This document shows, piece after piece, positions 19,576 to 27,997 of a DNA stretch of 64,000 bases. Under the pieces are notes generated by a model that made no database searches, was not told the DNA's origin, and was given only the letters and a program-made list of their open reading frames with translations. Positions within the stretch are counted from its first letter, which is position 1. Every line of letters begins with the position of its first letter. Source of the stretch: Thermoplasmatota archaeon (GTDB lineage Archaea; Thermoplasmatota; Penumbrarchaeia; Penumbrarchaeales; Penumbrarchaeaceae); NCBI GenBank assembly GCA_029762535.1, contig JARVGK010000003.1, forward strand, positions 64,001 to 128,000. The letters run 5' to 3'. The position numbers and the translations under genes were made by a program.

Positions 19576-20646
19576 GTGTTGATCATGTTGGAGGACCAGC
19601 TTTCCACATCCAGGTTCGAGAGCGTTGGGGTCAATGTCCCCTCCAGGTCACTCACGACCACCGACCTTATGAGGTCCATGAAGCACAGGATCGGGCTAGA
19701 CCTCGAGAGGCTTACGGGCATCCATGCTAGGAGGGTCTGCGCCCCAGGAGAGTCATCATACACATTGGCCCTGAATTCCGCCAGGGACTGCCTCAGCCAT
19801 TCGAGATACAAGCCGGATGACCTGGAGGTTATAATAAACTGCTCCATATCCCGTTCAAAGGACCGGAACATGATAGTCTATGAACCATCCATGGCCCATT
19901 ACATCCGTCAGGCGATCGGGGCCAAGAACGCAATGGTGTTCGATATCAACAATGCATGCGCTGGAATGCTAACGGGCGTTCAGATACTAAACGGTTATAT
20001 CAGGAACGGAATATTCAAGAACGGCATGGTCGTCAGCGGAGAGCATATAACGCCGATCAGCGACAGCGCGACAAGGACGGTCAGGTCGATAGCGAGCAGA
20101 CAGCTCGCCTCCCTTACCGTTGGAGACGCGGGAGCCGCGGTAATACTCGAAAAAACGGGGGATCGGGGCAACGGGATGTCGGTCACCCAGTTCACCACCC
20201 TCTCGAAGTTCAGCAGGCTCTGCATAGGAAAGCCGCTCACCAACGATATCGGCGGAATGATGGTGGCAAAAGCAAGGAAGATCCACAGGGTGGCCCTGGA
20301 CCACGCCCCTCAACTGATCAAGGGGGCCCTCATCAAGGCGGGACTGACCATAGACAGGATAGATCATCTCATCCCGCACCAGACCTCGAAAAGCTCAATA
20401 AAGAAAGGCATAAAGGAGATGGCCGACCATTTCAAAGCGACTCCCAAGAACGTCGTCATCAATCTGATGGAGTATGGGAATACGGCCTCGACGACAGTGT
20501 TCCTTGCCCTTCATGACATGCTCAAGGGCGGCATCGTGAAGAAAGGCGAGAAGATCATGCTATTGTGCTTCGCATCGGGCCTGGTCGTTGGGGTTATCAT
20601 CTTTACAATGGACGATCTGGTGGATCGATATGGGATCTCGAATTAG
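19576..20646 (+). CDS. oleA: OleA/KAS-III-type acyl-CoA condensing enzyme, catalytic subunit (LstA-like)
   Basis: YEPS Glu, FDINNACAG catalytic Cys, IPHQTS His, YGNTAS Asn, VVSGE and LTVGDAGAAVIL; ATG alternative at 19585. Confidence 0.85.
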   Translation: MLIMLEDQLSTSRFESVGVNVPSRSLTTTDLMRSMKHRIGLDLERLTGIHARRVCAPGESSYTLALNSARDCLSHSRYKPDDLEVIINCSISRSKDRNMIVYEPSMAHYIRQAIGAKNAMVFDINNACAGMLTGVQILNGYIRNGIFKNGMVVSGEHITPISDSATRTVRSIASRQLASLTVGDAGAAVILEKTGDRGNGMSVTQFTTLSKFSRLCIGKPLTNDIGGMMVAKARKIHRVALDHAPQLIKGALIKAGLTIDRIDHLIPHQTSKSSIKKGIKEMADHFKATPKNVVINLMEYGNTASTTVFLALHDMLKGGIVKKGEKIMLLCFASGLVVGVIIFTMDDLVDRYGISN

Positions 20647-21526
20647 GTCAGCCGCATTCGTTGGGAAGAGCCTCAACCCTTTCTCCAGAGGCGCCATATC
20701 ACTGGGTGTCAAGGCTGCGAGGAAATGCATCCATAACTCGGGTATAGACCCGTCAGACATAGGACTGCTCATCTTCTGCGGAATATACCGGGACGAGAAC
20801 ATCGGGGAGCCGGCCATCGCCTCGCTCATACAGTCCAATCTTGATATCAACCTCCTGAGCGAGGGTGAGAAGGGGACGTTCGCGTTCGACATACTGAACA
20901 GCGGTTGTGGGATGGTGACCGCGCTCCATGTGGCCGACAGCCACCTCCGATCGGGTGGAGGTGAATATGCGATGATAGTGGCCTCCGATCACATACCCAT
21001 CCCGAGCCATACCGAGGGTTACCCTTTCCAACCCGGGGGAGGCGCACTTCTGCTCGAACGCTCCGACGAGGACAGGGGCCTTACCGATTTCAGGTTCGAT
21101 ACATATCCGACCGACAAGGAGGCCTTCCACTCGTTCATCGAATACAGGGACGGAAAGGAGAAGGGTAAAAAGAAGGGGCAGTTCCTCAGGTTCGAGGAGG
21201 ACCCACATTTCCTGGAAAAGGGCGTATCGGGTGCGCTTATGACGGTTAATAAACTCCTTGAGAGGAATTCACTGAGCATCGATGACGTACGGTCGATCCT
21301 GCCATCCCAGAGCCCGACAGGCTTCCCCATTGCCCTTGGAAAAGGGTTGGGCCAAGAGAAGAGGACCATTGACCTTACAAGCATCCATGGGAACCTCCAC
21401 ACGGCGGGATTGGCGGCCTGTCTCGAGAGCGCCATGGAGAGCGATAAGCTTCCTGCGAACTCGAACCTCCTTCTCGTAAATGTTGGATCGGGAATATCGG
21501 TGGGCGCGGCCCTTCTCCGAACATGA
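20630..21526 (+). CDS. Second KAS-III-fold subunit with degenerate active site (LstB-like partner)
   Basis: GEPAIASLIQ Glu retained; FDILNSGCG has Gly at the Cys position; LPSQSP has no His; HGNLHTAG; start overlaps the upstream gene end. Confidence 0.8.
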   Translation: MGSRIRSAAFVGKSLNPFSRGAISLGVKAARKCIHNSGIDPSDIGLLIFCGIYRDENIGEPAIASLIQSNLDINLLSEGEKGTFAFDILNSGCGMVTALHVADSHLRSGGGEYAMIVASDHIPIPSHTEGYPFQPGGGALLLERSDEDRGLTDFRFDTYPTDKEAFHSFIEYRDGKEKGKKKGQFLRFEEDPHFLEKGVSGALMTVNKLLERNSLSIDDVRSILPSQSPTGFPIALGKGLGQEKRTIDLTSIHGNLHTAGLAACLESAMESDKLPANSNLLLVNVGSGISVGAALLRT

Positions 21527-21557
21527 ACCATAGACCGGCCGGGACCTGTTATATCCG

Positions 21558-22553
21558 TCAGATCGGATGCCCCTTCAGATATTCTCCATACCTCTTCATA
21601 CCCTCCGCCGTGGAAATCCTAGGTCCGTAGCCAAGGTCCCTTTTGGCCGAGGAGATATCGAACCAGTGTGAACTGGTCATCTCCTCCACAAGGAACCTGG
21701 TGACAATGGGCTCTCCTCTCCTTCGAAGGAGGAAGTGGGTCAATTCCATGATCCCCGCTAAAGCCATGGCCGTCCATTTGGGAATGGACCCCCTGATAGG
21801 AGGGGCCCCTGCAAGGGCCAGGAAGTCATCGATGGCATCCCAGGCATTCACTGGCTCACCGTTGGTGATGAAATATGCTCTGCCCCTGCATCGTGGGTTC
21901 TCCTTGAGCGCTTTGAGGGCCAGGATATGGGCCTCGGCGGCGTTTTCAATATAAACCATGTCCACAACGTTCTTTCCGCCCCCTAACCTCTTCAACCTTC
22001 CGGCCCTTGCCCCCTGGACGAGCCGAGGGAGCAATCGGTCGTCCCCCGGACCCCAGATGAGATGCGGACGCAGTGCAATGGTCCGAATATCATCGCCGTT
22101 CGCTGAGAGGACCATACGCTCGGACGCCGCCTTGGTCCGGTTGTAATGCGACCCATGCACTGCGGGATACGGTGCGCTCTCATCGGCGCCCTCCATGTCC
22201 TTCCCATCAAAGACAACGGAAGGGGAGCTTGTGAAGACGAGGTAACCCACTCCGTTACTCCTGCATGCTTCGATCACGTTCCGGGTCCCCTCAACGTTCG
22301 TCCTGTGGAATTCGTGATAAGGCCCCCAGAAACCCACCCTGGCAGCAGTATGTATGACCGCATCCATGCCCCCGACGGCATCCACCACCGTTCGCTGGTC
22401 CCCTATGTCCCCTGATATCGTCATGATGCCGCTCTTCCCAAGTTCAGGATAGCTGCCTCTGGAGAAGCTCGTGACATCATGGCCCTGATCCCGGAGCATG
22501 TGACATATGGCTCCTCCCAGGAACCCGCCTCCGCCGGTGACGAGGACCCTCAT
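21558..22553 (-). CDS. oleD: OleD-like 2-alkyl-3-oxoalkanoate reductase (3-beta-HSD-type extended SDR)
   Basis: VTGGGGFLG, FTSSPSVVF, YNRTK, LRPHLIWGPGD and AYFITNGEP; start overlaps the oleC stop (TGATG). Confidence 0.88.
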   Translation of the reverse strand: MRVLVTGGGGFLGGAICHMLRDQGHDVTSFSRGSYPELGKSGIMTISGDIGDQRTVVDAVGGMDAVIHTAARVGFWGPYHEFHRTNVEGTRNVIEACRSNGVGYLVFTSSPSVVFDGKDMEGADESAPYPAVHGSHYNRTKAASERMVLSANGDDIRTIALRPHLIWGPGDDRLLPRLVQGARAGRLKRLGGGKNVVDMVYIENAAEAHILALKALKENPRCRGRAYFITNGEPVNAWDAIDDFLALAGAPPIRGSIPKWTAMALAGIMELTHFLLRRRGEPIVTRFLVEEMTSSHWFDISSAKRDLGYGPRISTAEGMKRYGEYLKGHPI

Positions 22554-24175
22554 CAGAATTGCCTCCCGGCCCATTCCGCAAGCTCTTCCCTGAGTATCTT
22601 GGCATTGTGGCGAACGTCCATCGGGAATCCGTCATGGATCAGGATATCTCTAATATCCTCGGTCAGAATATTGGCCTTTCCCAAAGCCAGGAGCTCCTTT
22701 TTGATCCTGTCCGGATCGCCGATATTTTGGTCCTTCTTAAGCTCGACAACGATCACAGGCCTCTGGTTTCCTATTTGACCCACACCGACTAGTGCCGACC
22801 TGAAGACCAAGGGGTGTTTGTTGAAGATCGCCTCACATCTGACGGGATATAGCGTTCCTTTCTTTGTCACGACCCTGTGCGCCTTCCTCCCGCAGAACCA
22901 GAGCATTCCGTCCTCCAGATAGCCCGTGTCCCCCATTCTGTGCCATATGGTCTTGCCATCCAGTATCTTGGCGTTTTTGGTATGCTCAGGCTTCCTGAAG
23001 TATTCCTTGGTCACCGAGGGCCCCCTCACGCATATCTCACCGACTTCCCCATCCGGTAGGACCTCAGCGGACCCCCAATCCGCGACAGGTCCGTCCGTGA
23101 TCCGAATGATCCGAACCTCGTTGCCAGGTAGCGGCCTACCCACGCATGTTCCTGCTCCGGTCTCGGTCCTGCGGAGGGAGTGCTCCAGTATCACATCGCT
23201 GGAGATATCAGTTACTGGCAGTGCCTCGGTCGCCCCGTAAGGAGTATGGATAAGAGCATTTTTTGGCAGTATTCGGTGAAGATCGACCATGAGGTCGGGA
23301 CGTATTGGAGCTCCCGCGGTCACGATCCTTCTCACCGATCCCAGGGTCAACTTCCTCTCTATCCCGTAACGGGCCAGGTTCGTCAAGAGCGCCGGGGAAC
23401 CATAGACATTGGTGCATTTCTGGTCCTCAATGGCCCTGACTATGTTCTTAGGATCGGCCTTTCCGGGCTTGGTAGCATCCATGTAAGGGATGACCGAGGT
23501 CAGCCCCAGGTTGGCGTCGAATAGGGCGAAGAGCGGGAACGTCGCCAGGTCAACATCTCTCTTTTCGTATCCGAAATGGTCCTTTAGGAATCCGATCTGA
23601 TGGTCGAACATGGAATGTTCGTAGACCACTCCCTTCGGGGGGCCTGTGGAACCGCTGGTGAAGAAAATACCGACGGTATCCTCAGGCCTTCTCTTGACCG
23701 AAGGGAAAGGAGCGGGATCGGAGGATCGAACCTCTTTAAGCCTCTTACCGCCCCATGCACCTGTGGTTATCTTCAGTTCGACGGTCCTGAAAGCGGACGG
23801 TGAGAGTATCCTGAGTACATGGGCAAGGGGCGTCCCGATGAACGCCTTGGCCTCGACCTCCCCGAGGGAGGAGACGAGCCTCTTCTTGCCCATACCAGGG
23901 TCTATCATAACAAGGACAGCCCCCATTTTTAAAAGGGCGGAAGTGAGGGAAAAGAACTCTATCGAGGGTTTGACCATCAGGATGGCCTTGTCGTCCTTCT
24001 TGAGCCCCGCATCGATCAACCCCCTGGCGTATCTGTTCGATTCCTCCTCTAGCCTGCGGTAGGTCATGCTCCTATATCGAGGAGACGGATCGACCTGGAC
24101 CACCACAGCCGCCTTATCAGGTTGTGTCCTTGCTAACTCCGTCAACCTCTCCGAGAGGTTCGTCGTCGAATCCAT
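22553..24175 (-). CDS. oleC: OleC-like beta-lactone synthetase (ANL superfamily)
   Basis: FTSGSTGPPKG, DLATFPLFALF, TPYGATEALPV, WHRMGDTGY, LWFCGRKAHRV and OleC-typical FPMDVRHNAKI. Confidence 0.9.
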   Translation of the reverse strand: MDSTTNLSERLTELARTQPDKAAVVVQVDPSPRYRSMTYRRLEEESNRYARGLIDAGLKKDDKAILMVKPSIEFFSLTSALLKMGAVLVMIDPGMGKKRLVSSLGEVEAKAFIGTPLAHVLRILSPSAFRTVELKITTGAWGGKRLKEVRSSDPAPFPSVKRRPEDTVGIFFTSGSTGPPKGVVYEHSMFDHQIGFLKDHFGYEKRDVDLATFPLFALFDANLGLTSVIPYMDATKPGKADPKNIVRAIEDQKCTNVYGSPALLTNLARYGIERKLTLGSVRRIVTAGAPIRPDLMVDLHRILPKNALIHTPYGATEALPVTDISSDVILEHSLRRTETGAGTCVGRPLPGNEVRIIRITDGPVADWGSAEVLPDGEVGEICVRGPSVTKEYFRKPEHTKNAKILDGKTIWHRMGDTGYLEDGMLWFCGRKAHRVVTKKGTLYPVRCEAIFNKHPLVFRSALVGVGQIGNQRPVIVVELKKDQNIGDPDRIKKELLALGKANILTEDIRDILIHDGFPMDVRHNAKILREELAEWAGRQF

Positions 24176-24179
24176 CAGC

Positions 24180-25082
24180 CTACCCCCTGCGCAGGGCTTT
24201 CCCCACCTCTTTCAGGATGCGGTCCCTGGCATCCTCTATGACATAATGTCCAGCATCCTGATATGTCACGAATCGGGCCTTCGGGAATCGAGCCCTCCAG
24301 ACGTCTAATATATCCATATCGAATATGAAATCCTTTTCACCCCAAATAACGAGCATCGGCTTCCCCTTTAGCTTTGACAGGTTCTCGTCGATCCACTTGA
24401 GCGTGCCGTAGCTTGGGTCCTTTGGTACGAGGGGTATGTCCTGAACGAACCTGAGCGTGGATAGGCGGTTCCTCCACGAGTTGTACGGGGCGACGTAACC
24501 CTTCCTTACATGGGGGTCCATCCTCTTTTCAACGCCGATATGGGACGCTATTCTGGAAAAAGCGTTGAGACCCCTGATGAGAAGGGTCGGTGAGATCAGG
24601 CCGTACTTCACGTAATAGAGAGACAGGGGCAATCTCTTGCCCTCCGGCATCCTGAAGGCCGCGGTGTTCATGAACACGAACCTCGAGAACCGCTCCGGAT
24701 GTCCGACCGCGACCCCTGCTCCGATCACACCCCCCCAATCATGGGCTATCAGAGTGATATCCTCATCGATGCCCAGGTGATCGAGGAGCGCTTCCACATC
24801 CTGGATCCTGGATGCGATCCTGTATTGGTATTTGTCCTCTCCTGGTCGGTCCGACAGCCCCATTCCCATATGATCGGGCACGATGCATCGGTGGTCCGCC
24901 CTGAGGTCCTTGACCAGCTCCCGGAAATAAAAAGACCAGGTCGGGTTGCCGTGAAGAAAAAGAACGGGAGGTCCCCTGCCCTCGTCGAGATAATGATGCC
25001 TCAGACCGTTCCTCTCGAACCAGTGATGTTCGAACGGGTAAATGTCCCTGAAAGGGGTAATATCGAAAGGTGTTCCATGCAT
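24180..25082 (-). CDS. oleB: OleB-like beta-lactone decarboxylase (haloalkane-dehalogenase-like alpha/beta hydrolase)
   Basis: YPFEHHWF, LHGNPTWSFYFR, AHDWGG, RFVQDIPL and AGHYVIED; directly upstream of oleC. Confidence 0.88.
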   Translation of the reverse strand: MHGTPFDITPFRDIYPFEHHWFERNGLRHHYLDEGRGPPVLFLHGNPTWSFYFRELVKDLRADHRCIVPDHMGMGLSDRPGEDKYQYRIASRIQDVEALLDHLGIDEDITLIAHDWGGVIGAGVAVGHPERFSRFVFMNTAAFRMPEGKRLPLSLYYVKYGLISPTLLIRGLNAFSRIASHIGVEKRMDPHVRKGYVAPYNSWRNRLSTLRFVQDIPLVPKDPSYGTLKWIDENLSKLKGKPMLVIWGEKDFIFDMDILDVWRARFPKARFVTYQDAGHYVIEDARDRILKEVGKALRRG

Positions 25083-25248
25083 TGTATCCGGGGACCAAGG
25101 TCCATATCCTAAATTAAGATTGCTTCGGGGATGATCCGCTTAGATCGATCTATTATCATCCATCATCATTCATGAACCCCGGGATGTTTAATTATGGTCG
25201 AGTGGGGTTCGAATCCCGTGCGTCGCTAGAGCTACAACAAATTAGATA

Positions 25249-25335
25249 TGGTGCAGGGGAAGGGATTCGAACCCTCGAACCACTAAGGACCAGACCCTGA
25301 ATCTGGCGCCGTTGGCCAGGCTTGGCTACCCCTGC
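25249..25335 (-). tRNA. tRNA-Leu(CAG), CCA encoded
   Basis: Reverse complement GCAGGGGTAGCCAAGCCTGGCCAACGGCGCCAGATTCAGGGTCTGGTCCTTAGTGGTTCGAGGGTTCGAATCCCTTCCCCTGCACCA: acceptor stem, CAG anticodon, variable arm, TTCGAAT loop. Confidence 0.96.
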
Positions 25336-25657
25336 ATGTTTTTGCGTTTGTGCCTGGGTAGCGTATGGCCAACGGCGCCCCGAGACGCAGTCTCGGTGAT
25401 GGCGCCTCGGATGGGTGGCATGTGCCACCCGTCCCCTTCCGCGAACGCTTTGGTGGTGAGACCAAAGGGTTCTTGGGCAGGCTTGGCTACCCCTGCATGT
25501 TTTTGCGTTTGTGCCTGGGTAGCGTATGGCCAACGGCGCCCCGAGACGCAGTCTCGGTGATGGCGCCTCGGATGGGTGGCATGTGCCACCCGTCCCCTTC
25601 CGCGAACGCTTTGGTGGTGAGACCAAAGGGTTCTTGGCCAGGCTTGGCTACCCCTGC
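25312..25657 (-). repeat. 161-bp tandem repeat: three copies of the tRNA-Leu 5' 24-mer separated by two identical 137-bp hairpin-rich units
   Basis: ttgg(c/g)caggcttggctacccctgc at 25312, 25473 and 25634; intervening units identical. Confidence 0.93.
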
Positions 25658-25699: not shown

Positions 25700-25715
25700 T
25701 TCGATAATAAAGATA
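25700..25715 (-). promoter_or_regulatory. Probable TATA box for the repeat/tRNA transcript
   Basis: TTTATTAT on the minus strand about 47 bp upstream of the outermost tRNA 5' fragment. Confidence 0.45.
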
Positions 25716-25732: not shown

Positions 25733-27997
25733 TCAGGTGATGACGAGATCCTGGGACGATGAAACGAACAGTGTATCTCGAACTTTGTCGAACCTCGTGA
25801 AAATCTCAGGACCCATGTTCTCGATCTGCTCCTGAGTGAATCCAACTATGGTGAGATCCGCTTTTTTCGAGATCCTGTTGATCTTATCCCTCATCTCCTC
25901 ATCGCTCTCATATACCTTGGACTTTACCGATCTCATCGAGATCGGCAGCCTCCCCTCGGATACCAAAGCCTTCACCCTCTTGGCAAGGGCTGCGCGATCC
26001 CCTTTGGGAAATAGAGTGAATATCGAGATCTTCGTCCCTTTCCATTCATCATGCTCCATAATAATATAGGACAGAAGTATCATGAGATTGACGTTCCTGA
26101 AATCCTCCTTGGTTATCCATAGATGTATATTCTGTCTATGTCCGAAGTTATGCTCCGTGGATCTCAACACGAGCTTGTTGTAGTTCACTATGGATGCCAT
26201 CCTCAATCCCGTTATGATGTCGGTGAGGTCATCTTGTCTATTCTTGTGGAACTCGAACATTATGGTGTTATTGTCCATCCCTGAGATACCGGAGATCTGC
26301 ACGGTCTGGGCAACTGCCGTAAGCGTAGAAGGAGAAACCAAGGTGGTTACCGAATAGTTCGCCTTTGAGCTTCTCATCTCCTCTATTAGTATTCTCTCGT
26401 CCTTTTTCGAGGATTTGACGGTCTCCGGGTCCAATTTTCCCCTCGTCATATGTACCAGGGTCCCGAAACCGTAATGATGCGAGATCCACCTAAGCATGTC
26501 CTTGGGTCCCTTCCGCTCGATGGCATTGGTGGAAATGGCGATTATCGAGGGCCTCCAGTTGAACTTGTCGGGTTTTGACATGGTCCTCTGGAGGGTGATC
26601 TTCATCAACCTGCTGAGCTGGAACATCACACCCTGGAATATTATGGCGAACGACCGCGACCTTTTATGCCTCATACCTAATAGATAATAGATCCCTCCCA
26701 TTATCAGAAGGGTAAGGAACGCGTAACCCGCGCTCAACTGGAACATGATACCGAATGAGAATACGGCTCCAACAAGGGAGATATACCACTTGGTCTTGAA
26801 TGTTGGACGATAGGAGGGATTACCCGCAAAATGTTCGAGGAATGAAATGAGACAGACCGAGCCGTATGCGATCAGGAAGAACATGGTGATGATCTGGGCC
26901 ACCATGTTGAGGTTGCCCATGAAGATGAACACGATCGCGATGATCGCAGATAAAAGTGTTCCGTTGATAGGTTCGTTCTCCTTTCCCTTGCCATATCTTA
27001 TGAAATCCCCTATTCTCTTGGAGTAGAACACCTTGTCCTTGCCCAGGGCCTGGAGCGTCCTTGGTCCGATCAGAGCGAACCCAACTGCTGATGATATCGT
27101 GGCACCGAAAAGGCCTGCGAGTATAACGTATCCCAGATGCAGGTTCCCGATCCCGTTGGCCATATCGAACATTATCAATGTGTTCGATGCGAGGACATCA
27201 ACCGGGGCGCTCAGATAGAGCTTGACCATCATTGCCAGATAGACGAAGAACCCGATCACTATGGCGAAAATGATACCCTTTGGGATCGATTTCCCCGGGT
27301 CCTTGAGGTCTCCCGAAAGACCTACTCCTGCCGTCATGCCTGTGAACGCCGGGAATGCAATTGCGAAGACGGGTAGGAACCCCAAAGAGTTCTGTGATGT
27401 AGCGGTTATCCCGGACGGGGCGCCGGGTAGGGGTGGGCTTATCATAAAGATGATTATTGAAGCGACCATCAGTGTGAATACCACCCAAAGGAGTTTGATA
27501 CCGATCTTGGCTCCCTTGGTGAGAATGATGCTGAATAGTATGAGTGCCAAGGGAATGCTGATGAGCCGGGGATCGTAAGTTATTGAGATCGGCAGAGGAT
27601 CGAGCAGATATCTCTGGATCGGTTCTTTCAACGCCTCGAACCCTTCGGCAAAACCGATGATGTAGAAAGCCACGGATATGGACTGGGCCGCATACAGCAT
27701 GACGCCGATCGTAGCGCCAATCCTCGGTCCAAAGGATCGGCTGATGATGTAATACTCGCCACCGCCGCCAACCCTTAGGTTCGTGGCGATCTCGGATATG
27801 GCTACCCCGGTGGGAAATGTTACCATGTGCCCTAATAGAACTATCGCGATGGCCCCTATGAATCCGACGTTGCCGACCGTGAAACCAAAACGCAGGAACA
27901 TGACGGCGCCTAGTATGGCGCAGATCGAGGTGAGGAAGACGGGGGCGGTACCGAAACCGTATCCGCCCTTGATAATGTTCCTTATCCTTCTGACCAT
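25733..27997 (-). CDS. APC-superfamily permease, cation-chloride cotransporter (SLC12-like) with C-terminal cytoplasmic domain
   Basis: ILGAVMFLRFG, AISEIATN..VGGGGEYYIISRSFG, FPAFTGMTAG..LSGDLKDP.KSIPKG and NWRPSII motifs. Confidence 0.88.
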   Translation of the reverse strand: MVRRIRNIIKGGYGFGTAPVFLTSICAILGAVMFLRFGFTVGNVGFIGAIAIVLLGHMVTFPTGVAISEIATNLRVGGGGEYYIISRSFGPRIGATIGVMLYAAQSISVAFYIIGFAEGFEALKEPIQRYLLDPLPISITYDPRLISIPLALILFSIILTKGAKIGIKLLWVVFTLMVASIIIFMISPPLPGAPSGITATSQNSLGFLPVFAIAFPAFTGMTAGVGLSGDLKDPGKSIPKGIIFAIVIGFFVYLAMMVKLYLSAPVDVLASNTLIMFDMANGIGNLHLGYVILAGLFGATISSAVGFALIGPRTLQALGKDKVFYSKRIGDFIRYGKGKENEPINGTLLSAIIAIVFIFMGNLNMVAQIITMFFLIAYGSVCLISFLEHFAGNPSYRPTFKTKWYISLVGAVFSFGIMFQLSAGYAFLTLLIMGGIYYLLGMRHKRSRSFAIIFQGVMFQLSRLMKITLQRTMSKPDKFNWRPSIIAISTNAIERKGPKDMLRWISHHYGFGTLVHMTRGKLDPETVKSSKKDERILIEEMRSSKANYSVTTLVSPSTLTAVAQTVQISGISGMDNNTIMFEFHKNRQDDLTDIITGLRMASIVNYNKLVLRSTEHNFGHRQNIHLWITKEDFRNVNLMILLSYIIMEHDEWKGTKISIFTLFPKGDRAALAKRVKALVSEGRLPISMRSVKSKVYESDEEMRDKINRISKKADLTIVGFTQEQIENMGPEIFTRFDKVRDTLFVSSSQDLVIT

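Follow-up and report, generated by a model that had tools for sequence, protein, structure and literature searches.

What are the two long direct repeats that stand between an intact tRNA-Leu(CAG) gene and its putative promoter in a Thermoplasmatota archaeon, and why does each carry the first nucleotides of that tRNA? The window analyzed here is a stretch of 64,000 nt from assembly GCA_029762535.1 (contig JARVGK010000003.1, positions 64,001 to 128,000, forward strand); the host genome is 2.96 Mb and 93% complete. An initial annotation of this DNA had offered two readings of the repeats, a structured noncoding RNA cotranscribed with the tRNA and released by RNase P, or a miniature mobile element that targets tRNA genes.

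Architecture of the array at tRNA-Leu(CAG)

The features of the locus all lie on the minus strand and are described in the sense of the tRNA (Table 1). Direct repeats of 161 nt (25312-25472 and 25473-25633) are 99% identical, and the first 24 nt of the tRNA occur three times at a spacing of 161 nt with one change in the middle copy, exactly as the initial annotation had described. Each unit consists of 137 bp plus tRNA nt 1-24, and two units precede the intact gene. The third hairpin begins with 6 to 7 nt copied from tRNA nt 26-32, and the unit is therefore composed of tRNA nt 1-24, two inserted hairpins (M1 with its hexamer tag, then hairpin 2), tRNA nt 26-32, a cap hairpin and an antisense arm, followed by a linker. 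In the distal unit, the arm comprises 14 nt complementary to tRNA nt 18-31, a 3-nt gap and 7 nt complementary to tRNA nt 5-11. The 14-mer is a perfect complement of the intact tRNA, with 7 nt on each side of the hairpin junction, so that folding would restore the tRNA 5' region as a duplex from which two hairpins extrude. Behind the tRNA lies a truncated unit of a second, 3' type, which shares 78 identical nt with the unit that follows tRNA-Leu(TAA) on contig C58.

Table 1. Features of the tRNA-Leu(CAG) locus (positions in the window)
Feature	Position	Strand	Basis
Truncated 3'-type unit behind the tRNA (inverted T-arm at 25205-25217)	25171..25248	-	Inverted repeat
tRNA-Leu(CAG), intact, encoded CCA; target	25249..25335	-	ARAGORN; Rfam RF00005, 47.7 bits
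Proximal 161-bp unit	25336..25496	-	Direct-repeat analysis
A-rich linker (16 nt) before the tRNA (distal copy, 25497-25512)	25336..25351	-	Sequence
Antisense arm, proximal unit	25356..25379	-	Inverted repeat
Hairpin M1 plus tag, proximal unit	25437..25472	-	Repeat and predicted fold
Proximal copy of tRNA nt 1-24; C in place of the second D-loop G (standard G19, window 25477)	25473..25496	-	
Distal 161-bp unit	25497..25657	-	Direct-repeat analysis
Antisense arm, distal unit	25517..25540	-	Inverted repeat
Cap hairpin 3, distal (proximal copy, 25380-25396)	25541..25557	-	Predicted fold
Sense copy of tRNA nt 26-32, distal (proximal copy, 25400-25406)	25561..25567	-	Sequence
Hairpin 2, distal (proximal copy, 25409-25434)	25570..25595	-	Predicted fold
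Hairpin M1 (25604-25633) plus 3' hexamer tag, distal unit	25598..25633	-	Predicted fold; pan-archaeal module
Distal copy of tRNA nt 1-24, exact	25634..25657	-	Direct-repeat analysis
Possible TATA box upstream of the array	25704..25711	-	Sequence (putative)

The upstream neighbor of the array is a co-oriented amino acid permease gene ending at 25733, from which transcription of the array could alternatively start. Downstream is an OleABCD-like cluster; neither neighbor is common to the other arrays of the genome. The Ole genes, which adjoin the tRNA (19576-25082), comprise OleA-like (two condensing enzymes), OleD, OleC and OleB-like genes, and Pfam matches to ACP_syn_III, AMP-binding and Abhydrolase confirmed three of them. 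Open reading frames overlapping the array were dismissed as spurious; they are absent from the units of relatives.

An assembly artifact, the possibility that the initial annotation had raised against the duplication, has in its favor that none of the sequencing-run contigs checked spans the whole array. However, the two copies differ at one base, homologous and tandem units are present in many independent assemblies, those of other genomes included, and variant units were found in runs of two other studies. In three sequencing runs from three studies the 161-nt unit forms a separate short contig at ~1.4 to 2.2 times the depth of its flanks, contig depth being only suggestive of copy number and the first run possibly being the source sample; the three contigs carry 0, 2 and 8 differences. 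This depth fits a real duplication that is also present in related strains, and an artifact is highly improbable. The sequencing-run contigs checked contained no excised or empty form, a result that is uninformative either way. Runs of N interrupt tRNA arrays of this genome on C5, C7, C21, C23, C33, C47 and C69; tRNA-Leu(TAG) and some other tRNAs were not found in the genome and may be hidden in such gaps.

A genome-wide family of arrays at tRNA ends

The feature is a genome-wide family and not a single locus. Arrays adjoin 26 of the 42 tRNA genes, at the 5' end of 9 and the 3' end of 23. Upstream copies of the tRNA's own 5' end occurred at 9 of 42 genes, compared with 0.0 per random set and 0 when the sides were swapped; the corresponding values for 3' ends copied downstream were 23, 0.1 and 1. 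Each unit combines a direct copy of the host tRNA end with an inverted copy centered on a tRNA loop, where two hairpins are inserted; this center is the D-loop in 5' units and the T-loop in 3' units. The common 3' unit is accordingly a mirror image, made of a linker, an inverted acceptor and T-arm, and a sense copy that two hairpins interrupt at the T-loop. Unit size is uniform (~110 to 200 bp), and the duplicated tRNA end, 24 nt at the Leu-CAG locus, measures 14 to 44 nt elsewhere. Many tRNAs carry alternating A-B-A-B arrays, and tandem units often differ in their hairpin heads while the tail stays constant. A diverged homologue of the Leu-CAG unit, with Ser-specific arms, precedes tRNA-Ser(TGA) on C47, and on C29 a cargo of 2.6 kb, which includes a CopB-like ATPase gene, lies between two 3' units.

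Several individual arrays have peculiarities of their own. At the C29 locus (L047:400-3900), the 3' units belong to a tRNA with a CAT anticodon, a His-rich small protein is encoded between them along with the ATPase, and a HicB antitoxin gene lies directly beyond the last 3' unit. On C36 (49465-49720), a whole copy of tRNA-Thr(GGT) lies upstream of the gene, with two-hairpin inserts in the anticodon stem and the T-loop. The 5' units at tRNA-Arg and tRNA-Pro genes on C5, C14, C15 and C36 end in a hairpin that holds a TATA-like TTTATA box, and these units may therefore bring a promoter for the tRNA; in some Leu and Ser units, the middle of the arm is unpaired and contains a TATA-like run.

Homologues in relatives and tailoring to the local tRNA

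Searched with a covariance model built from 12 units, 8 genomes belonging to 3 genera gave strong full-length homologues (E < 1e-26), and most of the 24 family genomes gave weaker matches. The homologues sit at Leu-CAG, Leu-TAA, Leu-GAG and Ser-TGA genes. Relatives differ in how many units they carry, in unit order and in whether a unit is present at all: several genomes lack a 5' unit at Leu-CAG, and a given position can hold unrelated unit types. Only Thermoplasmatota records and metagenome contigs yielded the full unit; bacterial matches to the full-unit pattern had neither M1 nor a tRNA context and were set aside as chance. In hairpins 2 and 3 of 18 units, 261 Watson-Crick pairs stand against 24 mismatches, the sequence changing while pairing is kept, and neither the loops nor the stem sequences are conserved among units. 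The copies at other tRNAs with covarying stems that the initial annotation had proposed to look for are present.

The arm is fitted to the intact tRNA. It matches the gene, and not the fragment in its own unit, at all 8 sites where that fragment differs, and it is still present (11 to 13 of 14 matches) where the fragment of the unit ends at nt 14. The junctions are fixed, after nt 14 or after nt 22-24. In L025 and L034, both the copy of nt 26-32 and the arm change together with a local nonconsensus tRNA, as does the arm in Ser units. The substitution in the middle copy of the window array is nonrandom: the second D-loop G (G19) is replaced by C, A or T in about 10 units of the subtype found in the window and in none of the second subtype, a change that would weaken pairing in cis relative to pairing with the intact target. 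Related cores occur at different isotypes with retailored tRNA-derived arms; one Ser-TGA core has 80 to 81% identity with Leu-CAG cores from its own genus, compared with a background of ~67%, and this similarity suggests movement between isotypes.

Folding and strand polarity

In tRNA sense, the unit is predicted to form three hairpins and a closing antisense arm, in agreement with the initial annotation, at -92 kcal/mol (z score, -5.6; none of 200 shuffled sequences folded as well). The opposite strand folds at -99 kcal/mol. Neutral decay should produce A-C and G-T mismatches equally. Among all 5' units, A-C exceeded G-T by 16 to 4 in the sense strand and C-C exceeded G-G by 28 to 1; the A-C to G-T ratio was 12 to 1 in the subtype of the window unit, which includes a C-A mismatch in hairpin 2, and 4 to 0 in M1 across phyla. 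As A-C and C-C in sense are G-T and G-G on the template, the template strand folds better. These counts are not independent owing to kinship and one recurrent C-A site, and the 3' units show no significant bias (17 G-T versus 10 A-C), so the preference for the template strand is a lean and not proof.

The unit and the downstream tRNA fold jointly at -127.9 kcal/mol, versus -116.5 kcal/mol for separate folds. In the full precursor RNA, the arm is predicted to unfold the tRNA, which loses its acceptor stem, in a model that ignores tertiary contacts and cotranscriptional folding. A search of the locus against Rfam returned the tRNA as the sole match above the gathering score, and the same scan of the whole window returned no match; the unit thus matches no Rfam family, and the initial annotation had likewise recognized none. 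The genome encodes EndA, and a spliceable bulge-helix-bulge was also considered. It was set aside; judged by eye, the central helix would have only 4 bp and the flanks 1 to 2 bp, in a register that is not kept in relatives.

The M1 hairpin across archaea

M1 extends well beyond the full unit. Its pattern has at least 119 matches in GTDB genomes; among the 80 matches listed, all but one are archaeal, many of them from DPANN. The closing pair covaries, being C:G in 62 and G:C in 54 of 124 sites. A tRNA signature lies beside 58 of these 124 sites, compared with 12.5 by chance, and deletion of the M1 insert restores a high-scoring tRNA at 16 sites, compared with 0 to 1 in controls. In the 16 restored tRNAs, M1 is always in sense orientation (16:0), and in 13 it lies in the anticodon loop. 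M1, which lies at the junction of the unit, has a conserved mismatch and a hexamer tag at its foot, and the tag is conserved across phyla. In DPANN and other archaea, most copies inside tRNA genes sit at the intron site of the anticodon loop; elsewhere, M1 lies in T-loops, D-loops, variable arms and an RNase P-like gene or precedes a tRNA with a short duplicated 5' end. The RNase P-like copy (L133:6670) is inside a sequence resembling the 5' part of the RNase P RNA gene. Among viral contigs, one phage-like genome contains two true matches and no obvious mobilizer; on a tailed-virus contig, M1 occupies an intergenic gap near terminase genes (L169:4414-4443).

Search for a mobilizing enzyme

Clustering of the open reading frames near ~120 M1 sites returned mostly housekeeping genes and four ordinary tRNA-adjacent integrases. 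The Y1 HUH domain (PF01797) was found in none of the 24 family genomes, which are incomplete metagenome-assembled genomes, with positive controls. Searches for GIY-YIG (PF01541) in the family genomes yielded only frames of UvrC size (~600 aa) and no Ssn-sized gene, and a few small matches elsewhere in the class had no tRNA or hairpin context. Reverse transcriptase (PF00078) was not found in the 93% complete host genome.

Tyrosine recombinases are present in only 16 of the 24 family genomes, and ordinary integrases occur beside tRNAs in relatives. The host genome has two Phage_integrase matches, both away from the unit. It encodes a 266-aa XerA/integron-integrase-like recombinase (C25:100855-101655; L049:1356-2156), 21 kb from the nearest array, which scores 187 against TIGR02249 (cutoff, 265). 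Orthologues are patchy in the family (L265, L266, L267 and L269 to L271), and several have beside the gene an attC-like fold-back with repeats different from those of the tRNA units; such a pair is a probable archaeal integron. The L270 orthologue adjoins a tRNA-Gly 3' array.

Comparison with known systems

In integron attC cassettes and in the folded attP(+) of CTX-phi, the fold-back of one strand rebuilds a duplex site. The units resemble both in their fold-back duplex site, strand-biased mismatches, tandem or alternating arrays and occasional cargo. However, neither strand of the unit matches the attC boxes RYYYAAC and GTTRRRY, no integrase is linked to the unit, and the site is the host tRNA sequence, retailored for each tRNA. 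REP/REPIN-RAYT systems and Rickettsia palindromic elements (RPEs) are likewise small, noncoding, oriented hairpins, and RPEs insert into structured-RNA genes. With these and with PATEs the unit shares, in addition, a conserved mismatch and a short tag at one foot, but in this host it is strictly confined to tRNA genes. PATEs, which derive from IS200/IS605, make no target duplication (PMC3119063), whereas 14 to 44 nt are duplicated here and the 24 genomes have no Y1 transposase.

The NTS/SRM hairpins of Ssn nucleases share with the unit an oriented single-stranded DNA hairpin and a CG-containing tag, which in the unit lies 5' of the stem when read on the template strand; the unit does not match the published SRM pattern, and the paper mentions neither tRNA nor archaea (PMC11893778). 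For the pTN3-like integrases of Thermococcales, attB lies within a tRNA gene, in its 5' half (PMC8371274), and as here insertion is at the 5' part of the tRNA, with the gene restored and a 5' fragment left upstream. Those elements are kilobase sized with a suicidal integrase, whereas the 161-bp unit contains no gene, neither an integrase nor a split remnant of one, and carries part of the tRNA in inverted form; units of this kind occur in tandem arrays and have mirror-image counterparts at 3' ends. In Caldiarchaeum, a 5' fragment of tRNA-Thr accompanies intron gain, with an element of 1.8 kb that encodes a recombinase (PMC3293823). The upstream 5' fragment, the link between mobile element and intron gain and the location of M1 at intron positions elsewhere are points of likeness; unlike archaeal tRNA introns, the unit needs no splicing, since the 5' end is rebuilt. 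The ends of both the 137-mer and the 161-mer are noncomplementary, which leaves no terminal inverted repeats of the MITE type. The unit lacks defining features of MITEs, PATEs and REPs, attC cassettes, SRMs and pTN3-like elements, and a published description of its layout was not found in the literature searched, most of it open access.

A probable tRNA-targeting cassette and its alternatives

We consider it probable that the unit is a nonautonomous mobile cassette directed at tRNA genes, with a folded single strand of DNA, probably the template strand, as its active form. The observations above supply the anatomy, tailoring, turnover and polarity in this reading; the chemistry is proposed by analogy with integron attC and CTX-phi attP, and in its mode of action the unit would resemble a small tRNA-integrating element whose attachment site is folded. 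The folded strand would rebuild a duplex copy of the target with two hairpins extruded as a four-way junction. A strand-transfer enzyme acting in trans, perhaps a tyrosine recombinase or an unrecognized single-stranded DNA nuclease, would cut at or near the foot of M1 and join the cassette into the D-loop region of the gene. The cassette would bring a new tRNA 5' end and displace the old one upstream, so that the tRNA gene survives and offers a regenerated target to later rounds. Either reinsertion or unequal recombination between the 24-nt repeats could then give tandem copies. The antisense arm would confer tRNA specificity, either as the partner strand of the folded attachment site or as a guide. 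A bolder form of the proposal, tentative at best, is a self-guided protein-less element of ~150 nt, served by an unrecognized enzyme, whose arm pairs across the insertion point and is retargetable, and whose M1 seeds archaeal tRNA introns at canonical and noncanonical positions.

The alternative that the unit functions as a structured RNA in the pre-tRNA leader, released by RNase P and serving as a regulator, a decoy or a switch that keeps the tRNA unfolded until processing, can draw on the strong fold in sense and on the ability of the arm to pair with the downstream tRNA in the joint fold. The putative promoter upstream of the array and the lack of a TATA-like box in the unit also make transcription of the unit probable. 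However, the mismatch polarity favors the template strand, which argues against a cotranscribed RNA, and the opposite strand folds at least as well. An Rfam match and conserved loops or stem sequences are lacking, the arm of the full precursor is predicted to unfold the tRNA, presence at the same isotype is patchy, and unrelated unit types take the same position. We regard a leader RNA as unlikely. Of the two readings in the initial annotation, the tRNA-targeting miniature element is thus the one strengthened, by the arrays, by presence and absence at the same isotype and by shared cores, while the RNase P-released RNA has lost ground on polarity, unconserved loops and tRNA unfolding.

Equally improbable in our judgment is that the units are worn remnants (attL/attR plus arm sites) of ordinary integrase-driven elements, for example of the pTN3-like type, shrunken by deletion, locally duplicated and immobile. 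The known 5'-half attB sites of such integrases (PMC8371274) and the ordinary integrases beside tRNAs in relatives would fit this account, but uniform size, stems maintained by compensation, alternating arrays at many tRNAs, the lack of any integrase remnant and the sharing of M1 by distant archaeal phyla would not. We likewise doubt a process without a dedicated enzyme, in which host repair involving R-loops, fold-back synthesis or template switching copies the ends of a heavily transcribed tRNA gene in both orientations and captures a dispersed hairpin, with selection keeping usable tRNAs. It would account for tailoring to each tRNA and for the lack of a co-occurring enzyme, and a constant tail with different hairpin heads resembles long target duplications; fixed junctions, the strict 16:0 orientation of M1 and its conserved tag across phyla are not readily explained in this way.

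Implications

Our results identify a major unannotated feature of this genome, in which more than half of the tRNA genes are flanked by cassettes. The tests made here concern how the arm follows the intact tRNA, which strand the mismatches favor, the recurrence of the G19 change and the occurrence of one hairpin both in cassettes and at intron positions. At tRNAs, such cassettes cause breaks or gaps in assemblies, and they can hold cargo genes. If the arm were a guide, the unit would amount to a naturally occurring, programmable insertion system much smaller than those already known, and would then be categorically new, which we think doubtful; otherwise it would be a miniature nonautonomous element. 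How archaeal tRNA introns arrive is open according to a 2026 preprint in which copying, mobile elements and reverse transcription were tested (10.64898/2026.10.13.758758). The presence of M1 in an insertion cassette and at tRNA intron sites elsewhere provides a concrete donor to test and a possible route to the origin of these introns.
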